Source: an uncultured Acidobacteriota bacterium (GTDB taxonomy: Bacteria; Acidobacteriota; Vicinamibacteria; Vicinamibacterales; Fen-181). From it: a stretch of DNA of 64,000 bases. The notes under the pieces were generated by a model. It did no database searches, had not been told where the DNA came from, and was given only the letters and a program-made list of their open reading frames with translations. The position numbers and the translations under genes are program-made. Positions 5,156 through 30,968 of the stretch are shown here, piece after piece. Every line of letters begins with the position of its first letter. Within the stretch, counting starts at the first letter, position 1. Where the stretch lies: positions 96,257-160,256 of the forward strand of contig CAWAMP010000011.1 of assembly GCA_963783255.1 (NCBI GenBank), in the 5' to 3' direction.

Positions 5156-6692
5156 GTGCAGAGTGCCCCCGATCCACGCGACCAGGTATTCGCCGGGCTG
5201 TTCGATCGGATCCAGGTGGGCGCCTTCGTCGGGATCCTCTCCGAGGCCGGCGGGCGCACGCTGGCCGCCAATCCGCAGCTCCGGCTGATCTTTGGCTATG
5301 CGGCCGAGCCTGGCGCGAACGACCTCGAGCCGTTCGCCGCCGAACGCTTCGTCGACCCGCAGGCGCACGTCAGCCTGCTCGGCCGCCTCCGCCACGACGG
5401 GTCGGTCACCGACTTCCTCGTCCGCGTGCGGCGCGTCGACCTCACCCCGATCTCGGATCGAGATCACCGGCCACGCCGAGTCCCTGCCTGACGGGAGCGT
5501 CCGGTTCGACGCCCTCGTCCGCGACGTCAGCGATCGCAAGAAGCTCGACGACCAGACGCGCGACCTCTACCATCAGCTCCTCCAAGCCGAGAAGCTGGCG
5601 TCGCTCGGCCAGACGATCTCGGGGATCGCGCACGAGCTGAACAACCCGCTCGCCACCGTCCTCACCTGGGCCGAGCGGCTGTCGCACCGGCAGGTGGACG
5701 ACCAGACGCGCCGCGGCCTCGACGTCATCCTCTCGGAAGCCGAGCGGTCGGCGCGCATCGTCCGGAACCTCCTGACCTTTGCGCGCAAGCGGCACACGAC
5801 GCGCGCGATGGTGGACATCAACCACATCGTGGGCGAAACGCTGGCGCTCCGGTCGTACGAACAGCGCGTGACCAACATCACCGTCATCTCGGCCCTGGCC
5901 GCCGGCCTGCCGCAGGTGTTCGCGGATCCGCACCAGCTCCAGCAGGTGCTGCTGAACCTCGTGATCAACGCCGAGCAGGCGATGCTCTCGGCCAACGGCC
6001 GCGGCACCCTCGTCGTCCGCACCTGGCACAACGGAGCGAACGACACCGTCGTCCTCGAGGTGAACGACGACGGGCCCGGGATCCCTGAGGAGGCGCGGGG
6101 CAGGATCTTCGACCCGTTCTTCACGACCAAGGAGGTCGGCAAGGGGACGGGCCTCGGTCTGACCGTGGCCTACGCGATCGTGGAGGAGCACGGCGGGCGG
6201 ATCTGGATCGGGTCGCCGGAGAGCGGGTCGGGCGGCGCGTCGTTCTTCGTGGAGCTGCCGACCGGCGACGCCAGCGCGGTGCGCGCGCCGCAGCCGCCGC
6301 CGGAAGTCATCGCGCAGGACCTTCCGCGCGGGGCCACCGTGCTGCTGGTGGAGGACGAGCCGGCGCTGGCCCAGGCCGTCGGGGACGGGCTCGCCGACGC
6401 GGGCTTTCTGGTAGACCGCGCCGGCGACGGGGAGGAGGCTCTCGCTCGCGTGGGGGCCGGGACCTACGATCTGATCATCTGCGACCTGAAGATGCCGCGC
6501 GTCGACGGCATGGCGTTCTACCGCGCCATCGCGGTCGCGAAGCCGGCGCTCGCGCGCCGCGTCATCTTCGTCACCGGCGACGTCGTCGGCACCGAGGCCG
6601 AGCGGTTCCTCGAGGAGACCGGCTGCCGCTGGCTCGCAAAGCCGTTCAGGCTGGCCGACCTGCTCCGGTCGGCTCGCGAAATCCTCGTGTAG
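5156..6692 (+). CDS. PAS-containing hybrid sensor histidine kinase (HisKA-HATPase-REC), apparent frameshift near 5450-5462
   Basis: ORF 5156-5491 is the PAS-like N-terminus. From about 5460, ORF 5292-6692 has the H-box [15 protein letters not shown], the ATPase motif [18 protein letters not shown] and a receiver domain ([11 protein letters not shown]...[14 protein letters not shown]). The frames join between ...RRVDLTPIS and [14 protein letters not shown].... Confidence 0.8.
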
Positions 6693-7567
6693 GGCAGCAC
6701 CGTCGCGCCCGCGTGGGTGGCGGCTGGCGCGAGCTCCGCTTTCGCCATCACCGGGCGCTCGAACGGCAGCACCGGGCGCGCGGACCTCGGCGCGCGCGGC
6801 GTGAGCGCCGTGATCACGGGCATCGAACGCTCGGGCTGGCCGAGCGGACGGGCCGCGCGGGCGGGCTCGAGGGCGGCGCGCAGGCGCTGCATGGCGCGGG
6901 CGTGCAGCTGCGAGACGCGCGATTCGTTCACGCCGAGCTTCTCGCCAATCTCCTTCATCGTCACTTCGCCGAAGTAGTAGAGGTTCACCAGCCGCTGCTC
7001 GCGCTCGGGCAGCGTCGCCATCGCGCTGCGAATCCGTTCCTTCACTTCGGTGCGCTCGTAGGCCGAGTCGGGCGCCTCGGGCTCGGACGGCACGAGCGCT
7101 GCCGGCAGCGACCGCTCGTCGAGGTGGTCGCCGGCTGAAAGCGGGGACGTGGATTCGATCGTGTTGATGCGGAGGATGGTGCGGCCGAGACGCTTCTCGT
7201 CCGAACCGACCTTCGCCGCCAGATCGGCGAGCGACGGCTCCTGACCGAGTTCGCGGCGCAGCGTCTCGCGCGCGGCTTCGAGCTCGCGCCGCTGACGGCG
7301 AACGCCGCGCGGCCACGCCTCGCGCCGAAGCGCGTCAATCATCGCCCCGCGCACGCGGCGCTCGGCGAACGTCTCGAACTTGATGCCGCGGGCGTCGTCG
7401 AAACGCTGCGCGGCGTCAATCAGGCCCAGCACACCGTCCTGAACCAGGTCGCCGATGTCGATCGAGTGCGGCATCGACGCCGCGAGACGACGTGCCAGCG
7501 CCTGGACGAACGGGAGGCCGGCTACGACGCGGTCGTTCGCGGGAGTGGGATTCGCTTGGGCCTGCAT
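6518..7567 (-). CDS. sigma-70 family sigma factor, FliA/WhiG (sigma-28) type
   Basis: Region 2 reads DLVQDGVLGLIDAAQRFDDARGIKFETFAERRVRGAMIDALRR. The region 4 HTH reads TMKEIGEKLGVNESRVSQLHARAMQRLR. The ORF runs more than 100 codons past region 4 and overlaps the convergent kinase gene by 175 nt, so the 3' end is uncertain. Confidence 0.8.
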   Translation of the reverse strand: MQAQANPTPANDRVVAGLPFVQALARRLAASMPHSIDIGDLVQDGVLGLIDAAQRFDDARGIKFETFAERRVRGAMIDALRREAWPRGVRRQRRELEAARETLRRELGQEPSLADLAAKVGSDEKRLGRTILRINTIESTSPLSAGDHLDERSLPAALVPSEPEAPDSAYERTEVKERIRSAMATLPEREQRLVNLYYFGEVTMKEIGEKLGVNESRVSQLHARAMQRLRAALEPARAARPLGQPERSMPVITALTPRAPRSARPVLPFERPVMAKAELAPAATHAGATVLPYTRISRADRSRSASLNGFASQRQPVSSRNRSASVPTTSPVTKMTRRASAGFATAMAR

Positions 7568-7879: not shown

Positions 7880-8107
7880 CTACTTGGTGACGGTTACGTC
7901 GTTGACCTGGGCGCGGATCTGGCGTGCGGTGCCTAGCGCCTGAAGCGTCGCGGCGACGACCTGTGACGCGCGCGACCGGTTCTGGTCCTGGTCGCACTTG
8001 GCCTCGAGCAGCTCGGCGTGCGAGAGAATGATCCCGAGTTCGTTGTTCAGCCGGTGGAACAACTCGCTCAAGTCCCTGTAGCTGTTCTGGTTAACGTCTT
8101 CGGACAC
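7880..8107 (-). CDS. stand-alone DHp (HisKA-like) helical protein, possible phosphotransfer protein
   Basis: 75 aa with a GTG start preceded by AAGGGAG. ELFHRLNNELGIILSHAELLE matches the H-box pattern H-D-x-N-N-x-L-x-x-I-x-G-x-x-E-L-L of HisKA domains. A second helix follows and there is no ATPase domain. Confidence 0.5.
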   Translation of the reverse strand: MSEDVNQNSYRDLSELFHRLNNELGIILSHAELLEAKCDQDQNRSRASQVVAATLQALGTARQIRAQVNDVTVTK

Positions 8108-8240
8108 GGCTCCCTTTCGGCGAAGCGCACACCGTCTTCAAAATGTGTATCGGCCCCGTATCGGCGGGACTGTAGGAGACGGCGCAACAAAGAGCTTGGC
8201 GCGTCGACGGTGCCGTGTCAAAATGTTGGCGGCCGACTAA

Positions 8241-9623
<1,383 letters not shown>

Positions 9624-9629
<6 letters not shown>

Positions 9630-19198: not shown

Positions 19199-19225
19199 AA
19201 AGGGCCACCACCGCGGTGGCCCTTC
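19199..19225 (+). terminator. hairpin after the HAF-repeat gene
   Basis: aagggccacc accgc ggtggccctt, a 10-bp stem, located 42 nt after the stop. No U-tract. Confidence 0.35.
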
Positions 19226-19260
19226 GCGCGTACGGGCCGCCCCAGGTGCTAGAATCCCGC

Positions 19261-21108
19261 ATGCCAATCCGCGACCTTGCACGCCAGGCGAGGGTGCGCG
19301 GGCGCCTTCTGGCGCGCGCGTTCCTGCTGGTCTGGGAGAGCGCGCCCGGCTGGACCGGCGCGAGCATGGCGCTGGTCGCCGCGCAGGGACTGCTGCCGCT
19401 GGCGTCGCTTTATCTGCTGAAGCTGCTGGTGGACGCGCTGACGGCAGCGTTCGGCGCATCGCCGGCCGCATCGGCAGGAGCCGTGTCCGGCGCCGCGACG
19501 CCGGTGCTGATCGTCCTGTCGTTCGCCGCGGGCGTGGCGGTCCTCGAAGTCCTGTCTCGCACGCTCGCCTCCTACGTCGCTGAGGCCCAGACCCAGACCG
19601 TCATCGACCATCTTGCCGACATCGTCCACGCCCGGTCCGCCGCGCTCGACCTGAGCTACTTCGAGGACCCGCACTACTACGACATGCTGCACCGCGCGCA
19701 GGAAGAGGCGGGCTGGCGGCCGACCTACCTGGTCGGCAGCATGCTGCAGGCGGCGCAGGCGGCGCTCTCGCTTGTCGGCCTCGCCGGCCTGCTGCTCTCG
19801 TTCAACTGGGCGGTCGCCCTGGTCCTGTTCCTGGCGTCGATCCCGAGCGCCCTGGTGCGGCTCCGCTTCGCAGGCCGCCTCTACGCCTGGCATCGGACCC
19901 GTACCGCGGACGAGCGCCTGTCGTGGTACCACCACTCGCTGCTCACAGACGGCCAGTACGCCAAGGAAGTGCGGATGCTCGACCTCGCGCCAATGCTGGC
20001 GCGCCGCTTCCGCGAGCTGCGCGCGCGGCTTCGCGGCGAGCGGCTCGGCATCGCGCGCGGGCGCGTGACGGCCGACTCGATCGCCCAGGGCGGCGCGACG
20101 CTCGCCACGTTCGCCACCTACGGCGTCCTCGCCGTCGGCACCGTGCGCGGGGCTATCACGGTCGGCGGCTTCGTCATGTACTACCAGGCGTTCCAACGGG
20201 GACAAGGCTGGCTGCGCGACGTCCTCAATAACGTCGCGGACCTTTACGAGGACAGCCTGTTCCTCGGCGACCTGTTCGACTTCCTCGATTTGCAGCCGAA
20301 GACGGCAGGCGGCGCATCGCTTGCGCCGCGCCAGGCGCCGGCCGCAGGCGCGCCGCGCGAAGGCATCGTCTTCGACCACGTCAGCTACACGTATCCCGGG
20401 AGCACGCGCAAGGCGCTGGACGACGTGAGCTTCGTCATCCCGCCGGGACAGCACGCGGCCCTTGTCGGCGAGAACGGCTCCGGCAAGACGACCATCGTCA
20501 AGCTCCTGTGCCGGCTCTACGACCCGACCGAGGGGCGGATCACGATCGACGGAGTGGATCTTCGGGAGTGCGACCCGTCAGCGCTGCGACGGCGCGTCAC
20601 CGTGATGTTCCAGGACTACGCACGATACCAGCTCACCGCGCGCGAGAACATCGGGTTCGGGGACGTGGAGGCGATGGCCGACGACGGGCGCGTGGCGGCG
20701 GCGGCGGGGCGGGCGGGTGCCGACTCGGCAATCGAGGCGCTTCCGAGGCGCTACGACACGACCCTCGGCAGGTGGTTCGAAGGGGGGGTGGAGCTGAGCA
20801 CCGGCGACTGGCAGCGCGTGGCCCTCGCGCGAGCGTTCCTGCGCGACGCGGAGATCGTCGTCCTGGACGAGCCGACGAGCGCGCTCGACGCGAAAGTGGA
20901 GCACGAGGTGTTCGCCCGGCTCCGCGAGCTGGCGAGCGATCGGACCGCCGTGTTCATCAGCCACCGCATGTCAACGGCGCGTCTGGCGGACTGCATCTAC
21001 GTGCTGGCCCACGGGAAGATCGTGGAGCAGGGGAGCCACGAGGAACTCGACGCGCGCGGCGGGACCTACGCCACGCTGTTCAGATTGCAGGCTGAGAGTT
21101 ATCGGTAG
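19261..21108 (+). CDS. ABC exporter (fused permease + ATPase), candidate lasso-peptide exporter (D)
   Basis: Start taken at ATG 19261 (MPIRDL...). Six-TM N-terminal half. Walker A GENGSGKTT, signature LSTGDWQRVALARA, Walker B VVLDEPTSALD. Confidence 0.85.
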   Translation: MPIRDLARQARVRGRLLARAFLLVWESAPGWTGASMALVAAQGLLPLASLYLLKLLVDALTAAFGASPAASAGAVSGAATPVLIVLSFAAGVAVLEVLSRTLASYVAEAQTQTVIDHLADIVHARSAALDLSYFEDPHYYDMLHRAQEEAGWRPTYLVGSMLQAAQAALSLVGLAGLLLSFNWAVALVLFLASIPSALVRLRFAGRLYAWHRTRTADERLSWYHHSLLTDGQYAKEVRMLDLAPMLARRFRELRARLRGERLGIARGRVTADSIAQGGATLATFATYGVLAVGTVRGAITVGGFVMYYQAFQRGQGWLRDVLNNVADLYEDSLFLGDLFDFLDLQPKTAGGASLAPRQAPAAGAPREGIVFDHVSYTYPGSTRKALDDVSFVIPPGQHAALVGENGSGKTTIVKLLCRLYDPTEGRITIDGVDLRECDPSALRRRVTVMFQDYARYQLTARENIGFGDVEAMADDGRVAAAAGRAGADSAIEALPRRYDTTLGRWFEGGVELSTGDWQRVALARAFLRDAEIVVLDEPTSALDAKVEHEVFARLRELASDRTAVFISHRMSTARLADCIYVLAHGKIVEQGSHEELDARGGTYATLFRLQAESYR

Positions 21109-21145
21109 GGCGAGGCCTTAGTCTTGCCTGGCACTTATTTCGACT

Positions 21146-21298
21146 TCTTTCCCCTCCGGGCTGCGGCGATCGGGTTGTCCGGCTTCCCGCTGCGATAGCC
21201 CTGGGTCAGGTCGGTGACGCTTCCGTAGACGACGAGCTTCGGGGCGCGATACACCTTCCGGGGCGTTGGCCGGCCGCTGGATTCCATCCTGCCCTCCC
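21146..21298 (-). CDS. lasso-peptide precursor A1 (50 aa)
   Basis: Hand translation gives MESSGRPTPRKVYRAPKLVVYGSVTDLTQ / GYRSGKPDNPIAAARRGKKSK. GGAGGGGAGGG precedes the ATG. The leader motif YxAPxLVxYGSVTxLTQG is shared with the second precursor. Thr is at -2, the core starts with Gly and Asp is at core position 8. Confidence 0.75.
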
Positions 21299-21408
21299 CT
21301 CCGGCTCGTCGCGTCCATGAAGAGGCCGGTCGATTTCACCGGCCCGTGCTCGGGCGTCCTGATCCCGGTATCGGCCAGACGGCAGATCTCCAATAGCGCA
21401 AACCACAT

Positions 21409-21423
21409 GCCAGCGAGTAGGGC
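21409..21423 (-). promoter_or_regulatory. sigma-54 (-24/-12) promoter upstream of precursor A1
   Basis: The minus strand reads CTGGCATgtggtTTGCgc, which is TGGCAT-N5-TTGC. It lies about 110 nt upstream of ATG 21298. Confidence 0.55.
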
Positions 21424-21457
21424 TGGCCTTTCGGCGTGTCAGTAGAGGTAGTTACGG

Positions 21458-21545
21458 CGTGTCGATGTGGCGCGGGCGTGTCGGTGTGGCGCGGGCGTGT
21501 CGGTGTGGCGCGTGTCGGTGTCGCGCGGGGCTTCAGCCCCGCGGG
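21458..21545. repeat. REP-like array: 3-4 tandem ~19-nt units ending in the canonical palindrome
   Basis: cgtgtcgatgtggcgcggg cgtgtcggtgtggcgcggg cgtgtcggtgtggcg cgtgtcggtgtcgcgcggggcttcagccccgc, with the hairpin at 21525-21542. Confidence 0.85.
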
Positions 21546-22513
21546 AGGCCCCGCCTGACGTCCGCCAGTATTGCTTCCGTCACCGCGCCGAGATCGGTGG
21601 CGTCATCGCGGACGGTCAGTTGGCGGACCGGGACGCGCGCGGCGAGGCGGGCGAAGACGTCGAGCGCGCGCGTCCGGAGCTCGGCGTCGAGGACGTAGTT
21701 CATGTAGGTGCGGGAGACGAGCGCCATCAGGGCCTCGTGCCCCTTCAGGTCATCGATCGCGGCGGGCCGGTCGAGATCGGGTCTGCGTTCGTGCAGCACA
21801 TAGATCGCGCCGAGGGGTACCGGCCCGGCCGGGAAGCGAGTCCCGTCGGCCGTCAGTTCGAGGTGGCGCTTGTCGGTGGTGTCGCCGCCGTGCGGCAGCG
21901 CGTCCTCCGTGCCGTAGAGCGCGCGCACCGCGTCGGGCGCCAGTCGCACGACGTTGTGCCCTGGAAGCACGTGGTACTCGCCATCCGACTTGAAATCCAG
22001 CGCCAGCACATCGTCCGTCAGCGCGGCGAATCCGCGCCGGACGAACGCCGCCGCAGTCGTGGACTTCCCCGCGCCGGAGTGCCCGAGGAACGCCACGGCA
22101 CGGCCGTCGATGACGACGGCGCTGGCGTGGAGGCAGGGCGTGCCGCGCAGGTGCAGCACGAAGCCGATGATGGGCCCGAACAGGCAGGTCAGGATCTCGC
22201 CAATCGGCAGGTTCGCGGGCCAGCGGGCCCAGACCCGCAAGCCCGCCCGGTCGACCAGGAACTCCGACGCGTCCCAGTAGCGCACGCGGTAGAACTCCTG
22301 GCCGCACTGCGACACGACCAGGGTCGGTTGGCCCGCCTCGTCCGTCTCCGCGTCCGTGTAGCACACGCGCTCCGGCGCCACGAGCAGCTCCGCAGGCCAC
22401 GCGGACCCGCCGAGCAGCGACACTTCGAGATCGACGCTCTCCGAACGCGGCTCACCGCACGGTTGGTCGCGATCGATGCGGACGCGCAGGCCGAGCACGT
22501 CAACGCAGGACAT
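21533..22513 (-). CDS. HPr-kinase-like (HprK C-terminal domain) protein 1
   Basis: Start at ATG 22511-22513 (MSCVDVLGLRVRI...). P-loop LHASAVVIDGRAVAFLGHSGAGKSTTAAAF. The ORF-track extension to 22756 is not protein-like. Confidence 0.75.
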   Translation of the reverse strand: MSCVDVLGLRVRIDRDQPCGEPRSESVDLEVSLLGGSAWPAELLVAPERVCYTDAETDEAGQPTLVVSQCGQEFYRVRYWDASEFLVDRAGLRVWARWPANLPIGEILTCLFGPIIGFVLHLRGTPCLHASAVVIDGRAVAFLGHSGAGKSTTAAAFVRRGFAALTDDVLALDFKSDGEYHVLPGHNVVRLAPDAVRALYGTEDALPHGGDTTDKRHLELTADGTRFPAGPVPLGAIYVLHERRPDLDRPAAIDDLKGHEALMALVSRTYMNYVLDAELRTRALDVFARLAARVPVRQLTVRDDATDLGAVTEAILADVRRGLPRG

Positions 22514-22819
22514 GATCTTGCCCACCCCCAGTCTCGAGAGCTGGCGGCAACGACCGCGCCTGGAGGGTGGCGCAGGCGACCCCTCCCCTTGTGAAGAACC
22601 GCTGCACCGCCTCACCGTCTCTTCGTCTTGCGGTTGGGGCACACGCCGGGCCTGTCGCCCCCATCCCCAACCGCGCCATTGTTGGCCGGCTGGCGGTTCT
22701 CGGGACTCTGCCGATGGCGAATGTCCACGGCTCGCTTGGCGCCACCCTCCAGACACGGCCGGGCATCGAGGGCGAGACTGGGGATCGGCAAGAAGAGATG
22801 ATTGGGGTTCGCGGCGGAT

Positions 22820-23299
22820 TCAATGCGCGGCCCACGATTCCGGGAGGTCGTCTCCCTCGAAGGGCGAGAAGCGTTCGCCGACGTCCGGGTCGTCGTTCAG
22901 GACGAGGCCGCCGAGTTCCACCCAGGCGTGCGCCTCCAGGTGGCCGGCCGCCGTGCGGACGCCGATGCGCAGCGCGCTCTCGATGCCGCGGCGCCGCAGG
23001 ATCCACCAGAGGGCGACGGACCGCGTGAGGCAGTTCGGCCGGCCGGGAATGCGGAAGGCGGCGGCGTTCACCAGCCGGCCAGCCTCGCGCGCGCGCTGTG
23101 CGTCGGGCACTCCCGTGCCTTCGCCGATGACGGGGTGGCGGGAGAAGAACCGGCAGACGCGCCGCAGTCCGAAGATGCGGATGGCAGCCGCTACCGAGGG
23201 CAGGAGCGCAACGAGATGGAGAACGAGGCGCCGGTCCGGCGCGGGCAGGTCCCGCCACTTGCGCCAGGCCGACTGCCGGCGCGCGTCGGCTTCGCTCAT
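22820..23299 (-). CDS. lasso-peptide leader protease B2 (transglutaminase-like)
   Basis: Catalytic Cys context RPNCLTRSVALWWILRRRGI and His context GHLEAHAWVELGG. 159 aa. Confidence 0.85.
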   Translation of the reverse strand: MSEADARRQSAWRKWRDLPAPDRRLVLHLVALLPSVAAAIRIFGLRRVCRFFSRHPVIGEGTGVPDAQRAREAGRLVNAAAFRIPGRPNCLTRSVALWWILRRRGIESALRIGVRTAAGHLEAHAWVELGGLVLNDDPDVGERFSPFEGDDLPESWAAH

Positions 23300-24195
23300 G
23301 GACGACCGCTGACGCCGACGTCTGCGAGGACCGCTTCCCGCACGCGGTCGATCTGCTCAAAGTCGTGCGGGTAGGACAGGCGCCGCATCAGCCCGGTGGC
23401 GGCGAGAGCGGTCAGCCGCGTGAAGTCGGCGGCGAGTTGTTCACGATCCGGCTCGCCAATCCGGTAGGTGCAGTCCATCAGGTCGCGAAATCCGTCGTTC
23501 CAGTCAGGCGCGACAATCTCGATCGACGAGCCGGGGTCCTGCGGCAGGAGGCGGTAGATTCTGGCAAGCGGAACGTCTTCGTTCGGCGGCGGCGCGCCGA
23601 ACGACATTTGCCGCTTCTCTTCATCCCGCGGGATCGATCTTCCCGACTCCGCAGGAATGCCGAGTCGCGCGAGGGCCCTCTCCCGCAGCCTCAGGTCCGG
23701 CAGGCCGGGGTGGCAGCGAACACGCCCCTCGTGGTTCACCAGCGGGAGGCAGTCGTCGGCGAGAAGCGTGTAGCCGCGTCGGCCGAAGCTGGCCGCGAGC
23801 GTGGATTTTCCGGCGCCGCTCGTGCCAATGAAGCCCACCGCCAGCGAGGACGCGACGAGCACCGCGCTCGCGTGCAGGACGACCTGCGACAGGCTCAGGC
23901 AGAGCGGAAACGTTTCGTTGAGGAAGGAGTAGCGTGTGTAGTCCGGCGTCGCCGCAGAGCCCGGGTAGCAGACGATCGCCCTGGTGGCCGGGATGATCTC
24001 GAACTCCGTCAGCTCCGAGTTCTGCACCCAGCAGACCGACTTGTCCAGCTCGTACTGCAGAACGGCCGGCCGCGTGTGGCAGACGTCGAACGTGAAGTCC
24101 GGGGATTCGGCTGCCACGGGAGCAAGACCTGGGAACTCCAGGTTCGTCGCCACCGTGCATCCGAGGATGCGGTAGCAGAAGCTTCCGTTCCGCAT
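23296..24195 (-). CDS. HPr-kinase-like protein 2
   Basis: LHASAVLVASSLAVGFIGTSGAGKSTLAASF. Same fold pattern as 21533-22513 but strongly diverged. It overlaps B2 by 4 nt. Confidence 0.75.
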   Translation of the reverse strand: MRNGSFCYRILGCTVATNLEFPGLAPVAAESPDFTFDVCHTRPAVLQYELDKSVCWVQNSELTEFEIIPATRAIVCYPGSAATPDYTRYSFLNETFPLCLSLSQVVLHASAVLVASSLAVGFIGTSGAGKSTLAASFGRRGYTLLADDCLPLVNHEGRVRCHPGLPDLRLRERALARLGIPAESGRSIPRDEEKRQMSFGAPPPNEDVPLARIYRLLPQDPGSSIEIVAPDWNDGFRDLMDCTYRIGEPDREQLAADFTRLTALAATGLMRRLSYPHDFEQIDRVREAVLADVGVSGRP

Positions 24196-24196
24196 C

Positions 24197-25339
24197 CTAT
24201 CGCGAGTACCTGGTTACCACTTCCGCCACGAATTCGGCTGCTGCTGCCCGGGTGGGAAACAGATCGGCATGGGCGCGGCCGAGTTCCTCTTCGATCTCCG
24301 CGACCGTCTTCCGGCCGTCGCACAGGTTCACGACCGTGCGCCGTGCCGCGCCCCACGGGTTGAGCGTCGGCACGTGGTCCGGCCTCGTCCTGACCATGTC
24401 CTCGCGGCACAGCAGCATGCCCTTGAACGTGGAGTGCGCGAACTGGTGGGCTGGAACCGTCGCGCCTGCGGGGAAGACCCTGACGTCCCAGGAGATCATG
24501 GTGTCGCGCGAGAAGAGCGTCATGTGCACGAAGACGCGGTCGCCGGGCCCCACGCCCACCGAATGCCGGATCGGCAGGAAGACGTTCGCGCGGTTGATCC
24601 GCCGATCCGAGAGCGGGGAGTTGGTCATCGTCACGCTCTCGGACATCTGCGCCGAGAACCACCCGCCGATCCCGTCGAGGCGGCCCGGCCTCGAGACAGT
24701 CGTCCAGGCCTCGAGTTGGATGTGCGCGCCCGTGTATTCGCGGATGTCCACCGAGCCAGCCGTCGCCGACTCGCCCAGCAGATCCTCGGCGCGCAGCTTC
24801 GCGCCGTAGCCGGTGTTCGAGGCGATGTCGAACGCCGGGCGGAAGTCGAACCCCGCGCGCGGCTGTAACCAGAAGTCGATCTGAGGCCGCATCTCGTCGG
24901 ACTCGATCGGCGCGAGGTGGAAGTCGATCCTCCCCGGGATCATCCGGCCGTCCGGCTTCATCAGGCGACGCCGGGCGTCGGCGAAGTACTCGAGGACGCC
25001 CGCGTCGAACCCGAACCGGCCGATCTGGTCGGCGACGACGACGTCCACCTTCTCGGGGAGATCCAGCCGGGTGGACAGTCCCTTGACGAAGACCACCCTG
25101 TCCTGAAGCCCGTTGGCCGCGCTGATCTCCCGCGCGAGGCCGACAAACGCCGTCTCCTCCACCGAGTAGACGCGCTTCGCGCCCGCGCGGCAGGCGAGCA
25201 TACCGAGAATGCCGGTGCCGCAGCCAAGGTCGAGGACGAGGTCGCCAGGCCTGACGACTTCGCCGATGGCGCGCTCGAACGACTCGAGGCGCGGGATGTC
25301 CGCCAGGTACTGGCGGTGCTCGTCAACAACCAGGGACAC
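24197..25339 (-). CDS. PRMT-like class I SAM methyltransferase fused to a PqqD/RRE-like C-terminal domain
   Basis: SAM motif I VLDLGCGTGILGMLACRAGAKRVYSVE and post-I/II VDVVVADQIG, with an overall PRMT-like beta-barrel half. C-terminus AARRTVVNLCDGRKTVAEIEEELGRAHADLF...AAAEFVAEVV resembles PqqD helices. GTG start. Confidence 0.65.
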   Translation of the reverse strand: MSLVVDEHRQYLADIPRLESFERAIGEVVRPGDLVLDLGCGTGILGMLACRAGAKRVYSVEETAFVGLAREISAANGLQDRVVFVKGLSTRLDLPEKVDVVVADQIGRFGFDAGVLEYFADARRRLMKPDGRMIPGRIDFHLAPIESDEMRPQIDFWLQPRAGFDFRPAFDIASNTGYGAKLRAEDLLGESATAGSVDIREYTGAHIQLEAWTTVSRPGRLDGIGGWFSAQMSESVTMTNSPLSDRRINRANVFLPIRHSVGVGPGDRVFVHMTLFSRDTMISWDVRVFPAGATVPAHQFAHSTFKGMLLCREDMVRTRPDHVPTLNPWGAARRTVVNLCDGRKTVAEIEEELGRAHADLFPTRAAAAEFVAEVVTRYSR

Positions 25340-25389: not shown

Positions 25390-25539
25390 CTACAGGCAGT
25401 GCTTGCTCATGCCGGGCTGGCCGCCATCGGCCCCGCTGCCGGAGCCGCCCTGAGTCAGCTTGGTGACTGAGCCGTAGGCAACCAGCCGGGGCGCGGCGTA
25501 GGGCTTCTTCGGGGCGGATATCGTGGGGGTCGCGTTCAC
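25390..25539 (-). CDS. lasso-peptide precursor A2 (49 aa)
   Basis: Hand translation gives MNATPTISAPKKPYAAPRLVAYGSVTKLTQ / GGSGSGADGGQPGMSKHCL. GTG start with AGGAG 9 nt upstream and an in-frame TGA just before it. Same leader motif as A1, with core Gly1 and Asp8. Confidence 0.75.
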   Translation of the reverse strand: MNATPTISAPKKPYAAPRLVAYGSVTKLTQGGSGSGADGGQPGMSKHCL

Positions 25540-25651: not shown

Positions 25652-27517
25652 TTATTGCGCAAGCAGCCATGTTTCGACCGCGTACGCTGACCACACAGCC
25701 CAAGCCCCTCCCGGGTTGCCGCCCGAACGGTAGCCCGAGAGGCCGTTCCTGCACATCTCGGCCAGGCGGCCTGCGTTCACCCATCCCCGGTCCGCGATGC
25801 GCATCCGTTCGAACAGCCTGGGCCCACCAAGAGCACGCAGCGGCTCCCAGATCAGGTGCGAGAACTCCGCCTTCGTCCGCCGTCCCAGGACCGAGTCGGG
25901 GAGCAGCCCCTTCATGGCGTGGCGCAGCAGGAACTTCCGCTCGCCGCCGCGCCTGTGGCACTCCTCCGGGACAGCGAACGCGAACTCGATGACGCGGCGG
26001 TCGAACAGCGGGTGGCGCTGGTCCACACTCTGCCGGGCAGAAGCCCGGCTGCACATCTCCCAGCTGAGCGGGAGCCAGCCGTTCTCGAGCGCGTAGAATC
26101 TGTTGCGCTGGGCGTTCGACGGGAACGTGCGACCCGCGTATATCGCGTCGCAGCGGTCGTCCAGGGTCGTGCGGGCGCGAAACTCCCTTGTCAGCCACGG
26201 CCACCGGTTCCGGCGTCGGTCTCTGGCTCCGAGAAGCCGCGAGAAGGGCCAGAAGGCCTGCGCCGCCCCTCGAAGGAGGAGCCGGAATGCCGCGTTTCGG
26301 CCGAGGTCGCCCACGTCGTGCATGAATTCCGACAAGGCGACGCCGAGACGGAACCTTCCGAGCATGTCCGGATAGGGGTTGTCCGCGCCGGAGAACCAGT
26401 CGTCTCCCCCCGAGCCCGTCAGGATCACCCGGAATCCGCGCTCGTGCTGCAGGCCCTCCCGCTGGGCCACGGCGAGGCTGACGGGATTGGCCGTCAGGTA
26501 CCGGGACTCGCGAACTTCGCGGGCGAACTCTTCGACCTCTAGTTGCGGGACCGACGCGTTGTTCCGGAGGTTCCACATCCGGACGACGTCATCGATGTAG
26601 GCGCTCTCGTCGCACTTCATCCCAGGGAAGACCGAGGAGAAGGTCTCGAACCCCCACGCCGCCGCGTGCCCTTCGCGGAAGAGGTGCTGCGCCATGCCGA
26701 CGACGGACGACGAGTCGAGGCCGCCGCTGAGCTCCGCGCCAATCGGGCCGTTGCTGCGCATGCGGCAGCGGACCGCATCGCGAAACAGCTCGAAGAAGCG
26801 CTCCGCGTATTCCTGAGGGTTCCCGAACCGGATCTGCCTGTCGAGGTCGATGTCCCAGTAGCGCTGGCAGCGAAGCCCGTCGGCGGTGACGATGAGGAAG
26901 TGGGCGGGCGGAAGGCGGCGGACGCCCTGGTATAGAGTTTCGTCGCGGCTCGTCACTTCGACCGCGAGGAACTCGGCGGCCAAGCCCTCATTCGGCGTCG
27001 TGTCGATCGACGGAGCCTCCAGGATTTGAGCGACCTCGGAACCGAAGACGAACTGCGAGGGGTCGTGGTGGTAGTAGAAGGGTCTGCAGCCCAGAACGTC
27101 ACGGGCGCAGTAGAGCTGTCTGTCCTTCGGGTCCCAGATGGCGAAGGCGAAGTCGCCCAGCAGGCGGGCGGCGCAGTCGTTCTTCCAGAGGAAGTACGCG
27201 CACAGGACCAGTTCGGCGTCGGTGTCGTCGCGGGGCTGGACGCCTTTCGCGCTGAGGTCGCGCCGCAGTTCCTCGCGGTTGTCGATGCGGCCGTCGAAGA
27301 CCAGGCGGAAGCGACCGGTCGAGTCCGACAGCGGCTGGTTCTCGGCGGCAGCTTCTGGCGTCGTATGGAACGCGCCGTAGCCCAGGGCCACATTCCCGCC
27401 CATCCATGCCGCGGTGCCATCCGGGCCCCACGGGCGCATGAGGAGCATGACCCGGTCGAAGACGTCCCGGTCGATCTCCCTGCCGTCGAAGTTCCAGATG
27501 CCTGCGATCCCGCTCAT
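25652..27517 (-). CDS. lasso-peptide cyclase C (asparagine-synthetase-like)
   Basis: N-terminal MSGIAGIWNFDG (Ntn amidotransferase-like). PP-loop GAELSGGLDSSSVVGMA. 621 aa. Confidence 0.85.
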   Translation of the reverse strand: MSGIAGIWNFDGREIDRDVFDRVMLLMRPWGPDGTAAWMGGNVALGYGAFHTTPEAAAENQPLSDSTGRFRLVFDGRIDNREELRRDLSAKGVQPRDDTDAELVLCAYFLWKNDCAARLLGDFAFAIWDPKDRQLYCARDVLGCRPFYYHHDPSQFVFGSEVAQILEAPSIDTTPNEGLAAEFLAVEVTSRDETLYQGVRRLPPAHFLIVTADGLRCQRYWDIDLDRQIRFGNPQEYAERFFELFRDAVRCRMRSNGPIGAELSGGLDSSSVVGMAQHLFREGHAAAWGFETFSSVFPGMKCDESAYIDDVVRMWNLRNNASVPQLEVEEFAREVRESRYLTANPVSLAVAQREGLQHERGFRVILTGSGGDDWFSGADNPYPDMLGRFRLGVALSEFMHDVGDLGRNAAFRLLLRGAAQAFWPFSRLLGARDRRRNRWPWLTREFRARTTLDDRCDAIYAGRTFPSNAQRNRFYALENGWLPLSWEMCSRASARQSVDQRHPLFDRRVIEFAFAVPEECHRRGGERKFLLRHAMKGLLPDSVLGRRTKAEFSHLIWEPLRALGGPRLFERMRIADRGWVNAGRLAEMCRNGLSGYRSGGNPGGAWAVWSAYAVETWLLAQ

Positions 27518-27612: not shown

Positions 27613-27894
27613 TCACTGAGAGACCGTGAGCAGCCCGTGCTCCACCAGCTCGCCGATCAGCTTCTCCATGTCGGTGCGCAGTTGCGCCGGCTCGACGTCG
27701 TACTCGGCGGCCAGGCTGTCGTAGGCGGCCTGTATATTGCGGGCGTCCGTGAGGAGCGTCCACATCCTCGTCCCGACCTCGTCGAGGCCGAAGTACTTCT
27801 CGGTCTTGAGGTTGAGGACGACCGACTCGCCCTCGAGGCTACGGACCAAAACGCCGTCGGGCACGGACACGCGCGCTGTGAACGGTATGTTCAT
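27613..27894 (-). CDS. PqqD-family RiPP recognition element (lasso B1)
   Basis: 93 aa. ...VLVRSLEGESVVLNLKTEKYFGLDEVGTRMWTLLTDARNIQAAYDSLAAEYDVEPAQLRTDMEKLIGELVEHGLL, the typical PqqD pattern. Confidence 0.85.
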   Translation of the reverse strand: MNIPFTARVSVPDGVLVRSLEGESVVLNLKTEKYFGLDEVGTRMWTLLTDARNIQAAYDSLAAEYDVEPAQLRTDMEKLIGELVEHGLLTVSQ

Positions 27895-27900
27895 TGGTGT

Positions 27901-27960
27901 GTGTGGCGGTCGTCGCCGTGGCGCGGGGCCTCGCTGTGGCGCGGGGCTTCAGCCCCGCGT
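27901..27960. repeat. REP-like element
   Basis: gtgtggcggtcgtcgccgtggcgcggggcctcgctgtggc followed by the palindrome gcggggcttcagccccgc at 27941-27958. Confidence 0.85.
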
Positions 27961-29049
27961 GATGATCTTCCCCAACACCCTGAACGGCCGTATGACATGC
28001 AGCAGCGGCTTCAGGCGCGGCGGCAGTGGCAGGAAATCGTTGTCCGTCTGGTTCGCCTCAAGCGCCCGCCGCCACACATATCGGGCCTTGTCGCGGAGCG
28101 TGCCCGCCATCCGCAGCTGCATCATGGCGCCAGCCGGCCGGCCTGCGACGTCACCGTCCTCGGTGAAGAGGCTGCGTTCGATCTGCCGAGCGACGCTCAC
28201 TGCAATCGTGTCGCGCCTGGCCTCCGCGATCACATCGGGCGGCACCGGCGCCGAAAGCAGATCGCCGGCAAGAAGCAGCGCAACGTGGAACATCCGCCGG
28301 GTTCGACGGTCGGCGAGCAGCGCGTGCCAGCCAATCGGGGCCACCCGCACGAGGTTGGCGACGTCGCAGATCCACCCTAGCGACGTCCAGCAGTGCCGCG
28401 CCCCGTGCAGGGCGAGACAGGCAAACAGATCGTCAGCGCCAAACGTCGGCAGCGCGCCGCCGGCCATGTCTAGCCGGTGGACACGCGTCAGCGCCGCATC
28501 CGTGTCGACCGATGGCAGGTAGTGTGGTGAGACGGCCCAGTGGAGGTCCACGTCACAACCGGCCGGTGTCGCCAGACCGATTTCGCAATTGCCGCTCAGG
28601 TCTGCAGCACCTGGGGCACCCTTCTGGACACACCCGTTCGCAATCAGAACCGAGATCGCTCGGGTTCTGTCGCCCGGCCGAACCAGGATGTCCAGGTCGC
28701 AGAACTCTCGGAGTGCGAGGTCGCCGTAGGCCCACGCCGCGAGTGTCGGCCCCTTGTAGGCGATGGCGGGAACGTTCTCGGCCTCCAGCCAGCCCATGAC
28801 CGCTTTCAATTCGGCGGTCATCATCATGTTGCGGGCGGCATTCGCGAGGAATGCCTTGCGGAGATCTTCAGCGACCTCTGCCGGGATCGCGTCCGGGGGG
28901 TGCTGCCTCAGGCGCGAGTAGAGCAGCGGCAGCAGGCCGTGTCGGGCGGCCTGGCCCTTGACCGCTTCCCAGTCCGTCACCGCCTCGGCCGCCCGGCGCA
29001 ACGCCGCGGCATCCGCGCCGACGCGAGCCGCCTGGATCAGGATGTCCAC
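27949..29049 (-). CDS. uncharacterised nucleotidyltransferase family protein (NTP_transf_5-like)
   Basis: Start set at GTG 29047-29049, the first start codon after the upstream gene's stop. HGLLPLLY...AYKGPTLAAWAYGDLALREFCDLDILV...DVDLHW matches the family often seen next to lasso genes. Confidence 0.65.
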   Translation of the reverse strand: MDILIQAARVGADAAALRRAAEAVTDWEAVKGQAARHGLLPLLYSRLRQHPPDAIPAEVAEDLRKAFLANAARNMMMTAELKAVMGWLEAENVPAIAYKGPTLAAWAYGDLALREFCDLDILVRPGDRTRAISVLIANGCVQKGAPGAADLSGNCEIGLATPAGCDVDLHWAVSPHYLPSVDTDAALTRVHRLDMAGGALPTFGADDLFACLALHGARHCWTSLGWICDVANLVRVAPIGWHALLADRRTRRMFHVALLLAGDLLSAPVPPDVIAEARRDTIAVSVARQIERSLFTEDGDVAGRPAGAMMQLRMAGTLRDKARYVWRRALEANQTDNDFLPLPPRLKPLLHVIRPFRVLGKIITRG

Positions 29050-29065
29050 AAGCGGACGACCAGTC

Positions 29066-30968
29066 CTATGCCGACCGTGCTTCGGCCGGCCGCTGCACGA
29101 GGACCGGCTCCGCCGCCAGATCACCGTCCGGGCGAAGGGCCCCGAGAGGGTCCCTGACCTCTTCGAACCGGATTTCCATTCTGACCAGCCTCGCACCCGC
29201 CCGCGTACAAGCCTCCCGCGCCAGCGCAACCGCAGATTCGGGGATCTTGCGTGTCGAAATGACCACCGCGCCGACCCGGTTCGAGCGGACGCAGGCCTCG
29301 AGGTTGTTGACGTTCCCGACTATGGGCACGCCGTTCACGGTCTTCCCGACCCGCAGTGGGTCATCGTCGATGAACCCGACCGCGTGCAGATCCACGTGCC
29401 GGTTCGACAGCATCTCCCGCAGCGTGCTGGCGCCTCCCTGGCCGGCCCCATAGATGAGTGCGGGTACGCCGCCCTTCACCGCGCGCTCGCGGCTCGCATC
29501 CAGAATGCGATAGGACATCCGGGACCCGAGCGCGAGCCCCATTGCCACCAGCGCGTAGATCAGGAAGAGCGACATCGCGGCCGGCTGCTGCAGAACCACA
29601 TTCACGCCAACAAACGCAAGGAACGACGCGGCGACGATTGCGGCGCAAATGCGCACGCTGTCGTAGACGCTGGCGAGGCGCCAGGATCCGCGGTAGACGC
29701 GCAGCAGCCAGAGGATCAGGACCGTCGTCGGAATCAGCGTGGCCGTCATGGCGGTTTGCAGTGCGCGGTACGACCTCAGCGTCCAGTCGTCGTGTTTCAG
29801 CCCGATCGCCGCGAACACCGCGATGCCGACAAACAGGATGTCGATGAAGACGACGAAGATCGAACGCCTGAGGACGGGCGTGTCGTACAGCCGCAGGACC
29901 ACGCCGGAACGAATGACCGCAAACTCCTCATAGCCGAGTCGGCCGACGCCCACGAAGGCGGCCAGTAAAAGGCCGGCCAACAGGAGGCCGGCGCGTTCGG
30001 CCGTAAGGAACACCGAGACGAGGCCAGCGGCCGCGAGACAGAGGCCGGCGGCGTAGAGTACCAGAACGGCCCGTCGCTGGTCGAGTCCGAGGTCAAGCAG
30101 GCGATGATGCACGTGCTCCCGGTCTGCAGTGAAGATGCGGCCCCTCCCATGCCAACCGGCGGCGCCGATCGCCCGCCGCACGATCGACAGCAGTGTGTCG
30201 GCGACCGGCACGCCGAACACGATGATGGGAAGGAGTGTGGCGAAACCCGCGGACACGGTCGAGCCGCCGCGCAGCGCAAGGCAGGCCAGGGTGAAGCCAA
30301 TGGCCGTCGCGCCCGTGTCTCCCAGGAAGCTCGACGCTGGATGGAAGTTGTAGGGGAGGAAGCCGGCCAGCGCGCCGGCGAGAATCATCGCGGCGACGGC
30401 GATTCCCGGCTGGTGGACGAGCAAGAATACCGCGACGAGGCTGCCGGCAGAGATGAATGCCAGGCCGGCGGAAAGGCCGTCCAGTCCGTCCACCAGGTTG
30501 AAGGCGTTGGTGACGCCGATCAACCACATGACCGAGATCGGCGCGGCCCACATGCCGATATGCACCGTGTAGCCCAAGACGTGCACGTCGGGGTTCAGGC
30601 TCACGCCGAGCGCCACGGCGACGATTGCACCGGCGACGTGGCCCGCAAACTTGGGACCCGCTGGCAGGCGCCTGACGTCGTCGACGAACGAGACGACGAC
30701 GATGGGGATGAGCCCGAGGGCCAGCCCGAACCAGAGGGAGTCTGCCTTGAACACGGAGGTGGTGGCCGACACGAACGCGAAGACCAAGAATCGCAGCAAC
30801 CATGACGGCCAGGCCCCCGAGACGCGGGGTCGGTGTGGCGTGGATCTTCCGCGCCGTGGGGCGATCGACAGCCCCGAGCCGCAGCGCCAGCCGACGGGCG
30901 AGGGGCGTCAGCAGCCAACTAAGGACTGCTGCGCCGATACCTGGCAGGACGAGAAACAGCATCGGCAT
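29066..30968 (-). CDS. WecA/MraY-like polyprenyl-phosphate sugar-1-phosphate transferase fused to a CapD/WbpM-type N-terminal membrane + Rossmann module; apparent frameshift near 30783-30800
   Basis: ORF 30093-30968 gives the N-terminus MPMLFLVLPGIGAAVLSWLLTPLARRLALRLGAVDRPTARKIHATPTPRLGGLAVMVAA. ORF 29066-30799 then continues with VDDVRRL...NAFNLVDGLDGLSAG...FLGDTGATAIGF. After that come 4-5 TM helices and ALIYGAGQGGASTLREML...FIDDDP...GVPIVG. Confidence 0.75.

Follow-up and report, generated by a model that had tools for sequence, protein, structure and literature searches.

A putative lasso-peptide precursor gene with a sigma-54-type upstream element in a two-kinase gene cluster of an uncultured Acidobacteriota bacterium

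The window analysed here is a stretch of 64,000 nucleotides from an uncultured Acidobacteriota bacterium, with an overall G+C content of 66.7%. It holds a lasso-type gene cluster in which a short gene, referred to as A1, lies between a kinase gene and a convergent ABC transporter. The other genes of the cluster, in the coordinates of the window, are the following:

27949–29229, minus strand: NTP_transf_5 nucleotidyltransferase-like gene (NTP5); the start is uncertain, and homology begins near residue 57
27613–27894, minus strand: B1, PqqD-type RiPP recognition element (RRE), homologous to TbiB1 (PDB 5v1u, E 1.5e-11)
25652–27517, minus strand: C, lasso cyclase, Asn-synthase-like
25390–25539, minus strand: A2, precursor with a GTG start and the core GGSGSGADGGQPGMSKHCL; preceded closely by TGGTATAAT and AGGAG
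24197–25339, minus strand: MT, PRMT-family methyltransferase (CARM1/PRMT6-like)
23296–24195, minus strand: K1, second HPr-kinase-like kinase, part of a C–A2(...Cys-Leu)–MT–K1 cassette
22820–23299, minus strand: B2, leader peptidase, transglutaminase-like (NF033537)
21533–22513, minus strand: K2, HPr-kinase-like peptide kinase, with its probable start
19216–21108, plus strand: ABC exporter with fused TMD-NBD, MsbA/HepA-like, converging on A1 with a 26-nt gap

The genes C, B2 and B1 all lie on the strand of A1 and upstream of it, and their products pass or approach lasso-specific NCBIfam models. Both kinases match Hpr_kinase_C and HprK_rel_A, and the residues His129, Lys150, Asp167 and Asp168 are invariant across the K1/K2 alignment (10 sequences). 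The open reading frame of K2 extends over 21533–22756 (407 aa), but the translation start is probably Met82, at window position 22513, with the longer frame over-extended; homology to orthologues begins at Met82, so that B2 and K2 are separated by some 300 nt of DNA that appears to be non-coding. The ABC transporter is 94–97% identical to its orthologues, whereas the values are 78–81% for the cyclase and 82–90% for A1, which implies a far stronger constraint on the exporter than on the biosynthetic genes. Rfam returned no match at E ≤ 1 within 19–30 kb. The lasso cluster is surrounded by a polysaccharide-biosynthesis locus (11.5–18 kb and 29–50 kb) with genes for a UDP-GlcNAc 2-epimerase, a UDP-glucose dehydrogenase, glycosyltransferases, a heparinase II/III-like protein and a GT4/CoA-binding sugar transferase, and the G+C content of the window drops to 58–64% between 38 and 50 kb.

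The A1 gene and the signals around it are arranged as follows:

21456–21512, no strand assigned: three tandem copies of a 19-bp repeat (GGCGTGTCGGTGTGGCGCG), between the K2 stop and the sigma-54-type element
21398–21412, minus strand: sigma-54-type −24/−12 element TGGCATGTGGTTTGC, about 110 nt upstream of the A1 ATG
21288–21302, minus strand: Shine-Dalgarno-like sequence GGAGGGGAGGGCAGG, abutting the A1 ATG on its 5' side
21135–21287, minus strand: A1 precursor gene, 50 codons and TAA (open reading frame, leader model and dN/dS)
21201–21287, minus strand: A1 leader, codons 1–29
21138–21200, minus strand: A1 core, codons 30–50
21177–21179, minus strand: GAC codon of Asp8

The A1 peptide, MESSGRPTPRKVYRAPKLVVYGSVTDLTQGYRSGKPDNPIAAARRGKKSK, is the exact translation of 21135–21287 on the minus strand, with the TAA stop counted. 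The first-pass annotation had this 50-codon peptide right, but it placed the frame at 21146–21298, which is shifted by 11 nt, and it left the strand unstated. The purine-rich ribosome-binding site that it described is indeed there, since GGAGGGGAGGGCAGG stands immediately 5' of the ATG. In related loci (numbered L001 onwards) this Shine-Dalgarno-like sequence is kept in L001, L003, L004, L012, L013 and L015, while in L002 and L014 a 70-nt deletion spans the region. Neither a convincing terminator 3' of A1 (z = −0.53) nor a sigma-70-like promoter upstream of it was found.

The evidence that A1 encodes a protein comes from comparison with its relatives. Nine homologues, 49–51 residues long and 78–92% identical, were obtained from a search of 5.8 billion proteins; in the source databases they carry either no name or the label 'hypothetical protein'. 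The dN/dS ratio (Nei-Gojobori) in the A1 frame is 0.12 between the window and L001 (16 synonymous and 8 non-synonymous differences), 0.13 with L002, 0.12 with L014 and 0.20 with L003, and about 0.12–0.3 overall. Among seven close sequences the variable sites are distributed over the codon positions as 10/12/26, an excess at the third position, and within codons 11–30 as 3/4/11. The G+C content at third codon positions (GC3) is 0.82 in the A1 frame, and 0.80–0.93 in the remaining genes of the lasso cluster. An open frame that arose by chance in GC-rich intergenic DNA could nevertheless be suspected, given that A1 is short, that such DNA yields many spurious frames and that Pfam holds no match for A1 (or for A2); or the true gene could be the 96-aa frame that overlaps A1 (21118–21408, minus strand). 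The longer frame had already been described as not protein-like, and this judgement holds: its GC3 is 0.67, indels interrupt it in L001, and the 70-nt deletion does so in L002 and L014, for which reasons it was rejected as a gene. A1, on the other hand, shows purifying selection in its own frame and passes a curated family model (see below), so that both forms of this explanation have become barely credible and are taken as already refuted by the conservation pattern. Taken together, the dN/dS ratios, the codon-position bias, the synteny and the disruption of the 96-aa frame imply, at the level of sequence comparison, that A1 is a real gene whose coding sequence is under purifying selection, and that the longer frame is not.

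Sigma-54 promoters are defined by GG at −24 and GC at −12, with the spacing TGGCAC-N5-TTGC. The sequence TGGCATGTGGTTTGC agrees with this pattern in its −24/−12 elements, its spacing and its orientation upstream of A1. It is the one match to GGCAYRN4TTGC in the 64-kb window, where 0.57 would be expected by chance, and is therefore not significant alone; the support for it comes from its conservation across loci and not from the single match in the window. In eight aligned loci GG...TTTGC is invariant and the flanking intergenic DNA diverges, a box in the correct orientation is present upstream of 10 of 10 A1-type genes (the window, L001–L005 and L012–L015), and the motif has one further match elsewhere in about 300 kb of loci. 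These observations argue that a sigma-54-type promoter probably drives A1. A2 is instead preceded by different signals (listed above), which, together with the box that A1 has of its own, suggests that A1 is probably transcribed on its own. The only terminator-like match in the region overlaps the sigma-54 box.

Between the promoter and the start codon, the A1 5' untranslated region (21300–21397, minus strand) contains strongly conserved blocks, such as CCGATACC soon after the promoter, which is kept in L004 and L005. RNAalifold found no compensatory pairs in this region, and for this reason no RNA element is claimed. The copies of GGCGTGTCGGTGTGGCGCG are perfect or near-perfect, specific to the window and absent from all relatives; that they act as an enhancer or operator is speculation. 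The window also contains the gene of a sigma-54 activator of the NtrC type (8241–9629, plus strand), its tie to A1 being one of co-location alone, and rpoN is absent from the 64 kb. A hybrid histidine kinase (5292–6692, plus strand) and a sigma-70-family sigma factor (6518–7567, minus strand) are also present and lie, with the activator, 11–16 kb from A1. In the searched literature, no lasso precursor is reported to be under sigma-54 control and the two subjects co-occur only incidentally, although absence there is no proof. A precursor gene with its own conserved sigma-54-type promoter would be unusual, and it would tie production of the peptide to an enhancer-binding regulator.

In lasso-peptide biosynthesis, an RRE binds the leader, a peptidase cleaves it and a cyclase closes the macrolactam; the core begins with a small residue (Gly, Ala, Ser or Cys) and carries Asp or Glu at position 7–9. 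When A1 is divided after Thr-Gln, its leader has 29 residues, with Tyr-17, Pro-14, Leu-12 and Thr-2 corresponding to Y13, P16, L18 and T28. The remaining 21 residues, GYRSGKPDNPIAAARRGKKSK, form a core with Gly1 and with Asp8 as its sole acidic residue, followed by a basic tail of 13 residues, NPIAAARRGKKSK, which ends in KKSK and has Ser20 as its penultimate residue. The predicted monoisotopic mass of the dehydrated core is 2238.2457 Da, to which phosphorylation would add 79.966 Da, and that of the linear core is 2256.2563 Da; for A2 products the predicted value is 1683.709 Da. The A1 values provide a defined target for mass spectrometry. The NCBIfam model NF033521 (lasso_leader_L3) scores A1 at 24.8 bits and A2 at 26.0 bits, against a cut-off of 19, whereas the full-length model NF033528 (lasso_cyano) scores A1 at 27.9 bits, below its cut-off of 33, as is also the case for A2. 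By these models A1 is a member of the lasso-leader family that falls outside the curated NF033528 subfamily. The only match to A1 in the PDB is the TbiA-alpha leader (5v1v), in register, with an E value of 0.78 that is weak because the match is only 20 residues long. Residues 11–30 of A1 are thereby aligned with the crystallised leader, KEYRSPELKEYGRVEDRTAG, of the TbiA-alpha/TbiB1 pair (5v1u, 5v1v), a system that differs from that of A1 in organism and core.

A profile made from A1, its homologues and A2 was searched against 1.84 billion representative proteins and matched at least 500 of them at E ≤ 1e-3, nearly all of 40–70 residues. In the 155 best short matches, Thr occupies position −2 in register with YxxPxL in 154, the core begins with Gly in 120, and Asp or Glu is found at core position 8 in about 111 and at position 9 in about 30; 13 have neither residue at positions 7–10. 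These acid-free cases, about 8% of the best family representatives, include several that are rich in Pro and Lys, and a full lasso leader without an acidic residue at 7–10 is seen in P0030, P0032, P0043, P0058, P0082, P0105, P0106, P0111 and P0115 (P numbers denote homologous peptides). A curated NCBIfam model already covers this leader family, which counts at least 500 representatives. The A1 peptide itself contains nothing categorically new.

Conservation in closer relatives bears on the same question. The leader motif YxAPxLxVYGxVxDLTxG is retained beside homologous clusters, a comparison that the first-pass annotation had set as the test of its lasso reading, and the reading is therefore supported. 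Asp or Glu is found at core position 8 in L001–L005 and L014–L016; this includes the distant A1-type cores of L004 (GYGIGAPDNG..., with D8), L005 (GTGIGPLDNG..., with D8) and L015 and L016 (GFGNAMAEKPF...KKSK, with E8). The C-terminal Ser-Lys or Ser-Arg is invariant in 12 of 12 KKSK-type sequences, the divergent L015 and L016 included. The recommended comparison with A2 shows leaders that are near-identical across the recognition region (YRAPKLVVYGSVTDLTQG in A1 and YAAPRLVAYGSVTKLTQG in A2), which implies that one enzyme set can serve both precursors. The Thr at −2 and the Gly1/Asp8 pair noted at the outset are thus borne out, the former by its register in the wider family and the latter by the acid at position 8 of distant lineages; with the B1/B2/C cluster, the NF033521 score and the leader and core residues, the original proposal finds support as a whole. 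A1 is accordingly best read, with a probability of roughly 0.85, as a putative functional class II lasso-peptide precursor gene that encodes a 29-residue leader and a 21-residue core. For annotation this would mean that the cluster encodes two very different lasso cores, of which the strongly basic one, A1, was missed by gene callers.

The two precursors appear to be associated with different parts of the cluster. MT matches CARM1/PRMT6 at E 1.7e-24, with Asp in place of both Glu residues of the 'double-E' loop, and at least 1615 homologues are found at E ≤ 1e-10 among 8000 candidates scored. A cassette of B1, B2, C, a precursor, MT and a K1-like gene (of approximately 320 aa) is present in three of the three distant genomic contexts examined (L044–L046, from Methylomirabilis, Burkholderiales and a third MAG), and each of them has a precursor with a Cys-Leu or Cys-Ile terminus like that of A2. 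This co-occurrence in distant genomes argues that MT and K1 go with A2-type peptides, and it leaves K2 as the probable partner kinase of A1. The combination of methyltransferase, kinase and Cys-Leu precursor is very common in environmental bacteria. A C-terminal Cys-Leu characterises a large precursor subfamily (A2, P0019, P0029, P0037, P0054, P0061, P0076, P0077, P0089, P0103, P0107 and P0109), and Arg and Lys are both absent from some A2-type cores. A possible RRE at the C-terminus of MT (TIGR03859, E 0.019) was rejected after profile-profile comparison with B1 proteins gave a probability of 0.45%. Neither a report of a PRMT-family enzyme in lasso biosynthesis nor a characterised member of this cassette was encountered in the searched literature, which held only incidental co-occurrences and where absence is no proof.

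By analogy with characterised systems, maturation of A1 can be outlined. B1 would bind the YxxPxL leader in the way that TbiB1 binds that of TbiA; B2 would cut after Gln-1; and C would adenylate Asp8 and couple it to the amine of Gly1. The resulting macrolactam of eight residues would be threaded by the 13-residue tail, with Arg15 and Arg16 as likely plugs, and the product would be exported by the convergent ABC transporter. K2, with its intact His-Lys-Asp-Asp set, may phosphorylate the penultimate Ser20, and it is conceivable, although speculative, that the nucleotidyltransferase-like enzyme extends this phosphate. Ser20 is proposed as the K2 site on the grounds that the Ser-Lys/Arg end is invariant in all KKSK-type sequences; the assignment of this particular residue is tentative, with odds somewhat below even.

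Kinases of this kind have been described for several lasso peptides, namely paeninodin (PadeA/PadeK), ThcoA/ThcoK, SyanA/SyanK and pseudomycoidin (PsmK/PsmN); their His-Lys-Asp-Asp tetrad is reported to be essential, and the phospho-acceptor of the known lasso kinases is the C-terminal Ser (PMC9266682). A different acceptor, Ser3 in the ring, is used by BsfK on BsfA of Bradymonas sediminis, where the kinase, assisted by B1, modifies the precursor with its leader still attached, in a Gram-negative cluster with a kinase and a nucleotidyltransferase (PMC10368454). With the paeninodin type the A1 cluster shares, in terms of gene content and motifs, the split B1/B2, C, the ABC exporter, a His-Lys-Asp-Asp kinase and the nucleotidyltransferase-like gene, and A1 itself shares the YxxPxL leader and Thr-2. 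However, paeninodin-type precursors end in Ser and A1 ends in Ser-Lys, so that the acceptor proposed here is not C-terminal; in the A1 cluster, moreover, there is a second kinase, a second precursor unlike the first, and a PRMT-family methyltransferase. The Bsf system resembles it as a Gram-negative lasso cluster with a kinase and a nucleotidyltransferase, and the BsfA acceptor is likewise not the C-terminal residue. BsfA differs in having Ile at −2 where A1 has Thr, and its Ser3 has a counterpart in A2 but not in A1, whose serines are Ser4 (not invariant) and Ser20 (invariant). The A1 system is taken to work as the kinase-type lasso clusters of paeninodin, pseudomycoidin and Bsf do, and a dedicated second kinase with a precursor that carries a penultimate Ser could extend the site rules of lasso kinases.

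The history of the locus allows other readings of A1 to be weighed. The A1 locus is syntenic in at least eight related loci, including L001–L003 and L012–L015, in which the order K2–A1–ABC is retained, with A1 placed after the HPr-kinase-like gene and convergent to the ABC transporter. L015 has an additional PqqD-like RRE gene (B1', 7950–8213) directly before K2–A1, and its B2 sits between B1 and C; B1' is 34–40% identical to the RREs of distant kinase-type clusters, compared with 26% to the B1 of the window. L016 (8350–10425) retains NTP5–B1–A1–ABC and has no C, A2, MT, K1, B2 or K2; it is a decayed form of the cluster in which the A1-type frame is kept. From its sequence context, K2–A1 looks like an add-on module joined to the widespread B1–C–A2–MT–K1 cassette, and the affinity of the L015 B1' to distant RREs suggests that the module came from a second cluster that was merged with the first. 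It might then be argued that A1, though a lasso precursor, is processed not by the B1, B2 and C beside it but by some other machinery, as a remnant of the merged cluster whose own RRE was lost; the position and affinity of B1' in L015 would fit this, as would the window itself, in which a B1' remnant was searched for and not found. However, the near-identical leaders mean that a single B1/B2/C set should accept both precursors, and purifying selection on A1 persists in genomes without B1', all of which makes foreign maturation very unlikely.

A more substantial challenge to a lasso precursor comes from natural variants. In the homologues P0005 (L012 and L029–L032), P0008 (L013) and P0009, the codon GAC of Asp8 is replaced by AAC (Asn), which leaves cores without any acidic residue. 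P0005 is identical in four independent assemblies, and the K2 and ABC flanks are uninterrupted. To our knowledge, peptides without an acidic core residue cannot form a macrolactam by known chemistry, and the recurrence of these alleles with intact flanks indicates that at least one lineage can do without the ring-forming residue. The Asn8 clade also departs from the tail sequence that is invariant elsewhere (I to N, R to H), and its internal dN/dS is 0.40, a value based on 10 substitutions, too few to tell relaxed from maintained selection. In two Acidobacteriota MAGs, L004 and L005, an A1-type gene with a sigma-54 box has as neighbours an ABC homologue and a gene that resembles UDP-glucose dehydrogenase (1889–2228 and 5881–7937 in L004; 9825–12185 in L005). 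Lasso enzymes were not found within 10 kb upstream of the L005 gene or about 8 kb beyond its transporter, nor within 2 kb upstream (where the contig ends) or 10 kb downstream of the L004 gene; a scan with C that was aimed at lasso enzymes elsewhere in these MAGs returned only one close relative.

These cases raise the idea that the function of A1 needs no macrolactam, or drifts towards losing it, and that the product is a secreted linear basic peptide or signal, possibly phosphorylated, whose main ties are with the ABC transporter and with sigma-54 control rather than with the cyclase. Besides the Asn8 alleles and the loci without adjacent lasso enzymes, the acid-free members of the wider family would fit such a role, and so would the KKSK end that is kept in L015 and L016 though the rest of the core differs. 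On the other side, all other A1-type lineages, distant ones included, retain an acid at position 8, and the switch from D to E is what selection for a carboxylate would produce; the leader retains every residue needed for recognition by B1 and B2; the MAGs of L004 and L005 are possibly incomplete, and lasso enzymes may act there in trans; and the tail substitutions of the Asn8 clade are compatible with decay. A ring-free function is consequently judged unlikely for A1. A broader version, equally improbable, is that A1-type peptides, with their GxGxGKPD ring motif and basic Ser-Lys tail, constitute a sigma-54-controlled, ABC-coupled family that works without a macrolactam; such a family may have been recruited into lasso clusters and yet be able to persist without the ring. 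Were this true, lasso-type leaders would steer peptides to kinases or exporters whether or not a lasso is folded. The Asn8 alleles and the loci without lasso enzymes do not overturn the lasso reading of the Asp8 allele in the window, although they leave room for a ring-independent role. The lasso reading of the first-pass annotation therefore stands, with the addition of two things that it did not foresee, Asn8 in three homologues and A1-type genes beside ABC transporters without lasso enzymes. The natural Asn8 alleles provide a ready-made test of whether the ring is necessary.

What is unusual about the locus is regulatory (the sigma-54 box), architectural (the K2–A1 add-on and the two kinases) and population-level (the Asn8 alleles). 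In the Microflora Danica MAGs that contain L001, L003 and L004, frameshifts occur in several cluster genes and precursor frames: in A2 (L001 and L003), in NTP5, K1 and B2 (L001) and in the start region of the A1-type gene (L004). They are suspected to be homopolymer errors of assembly rather than true pseudogenes.
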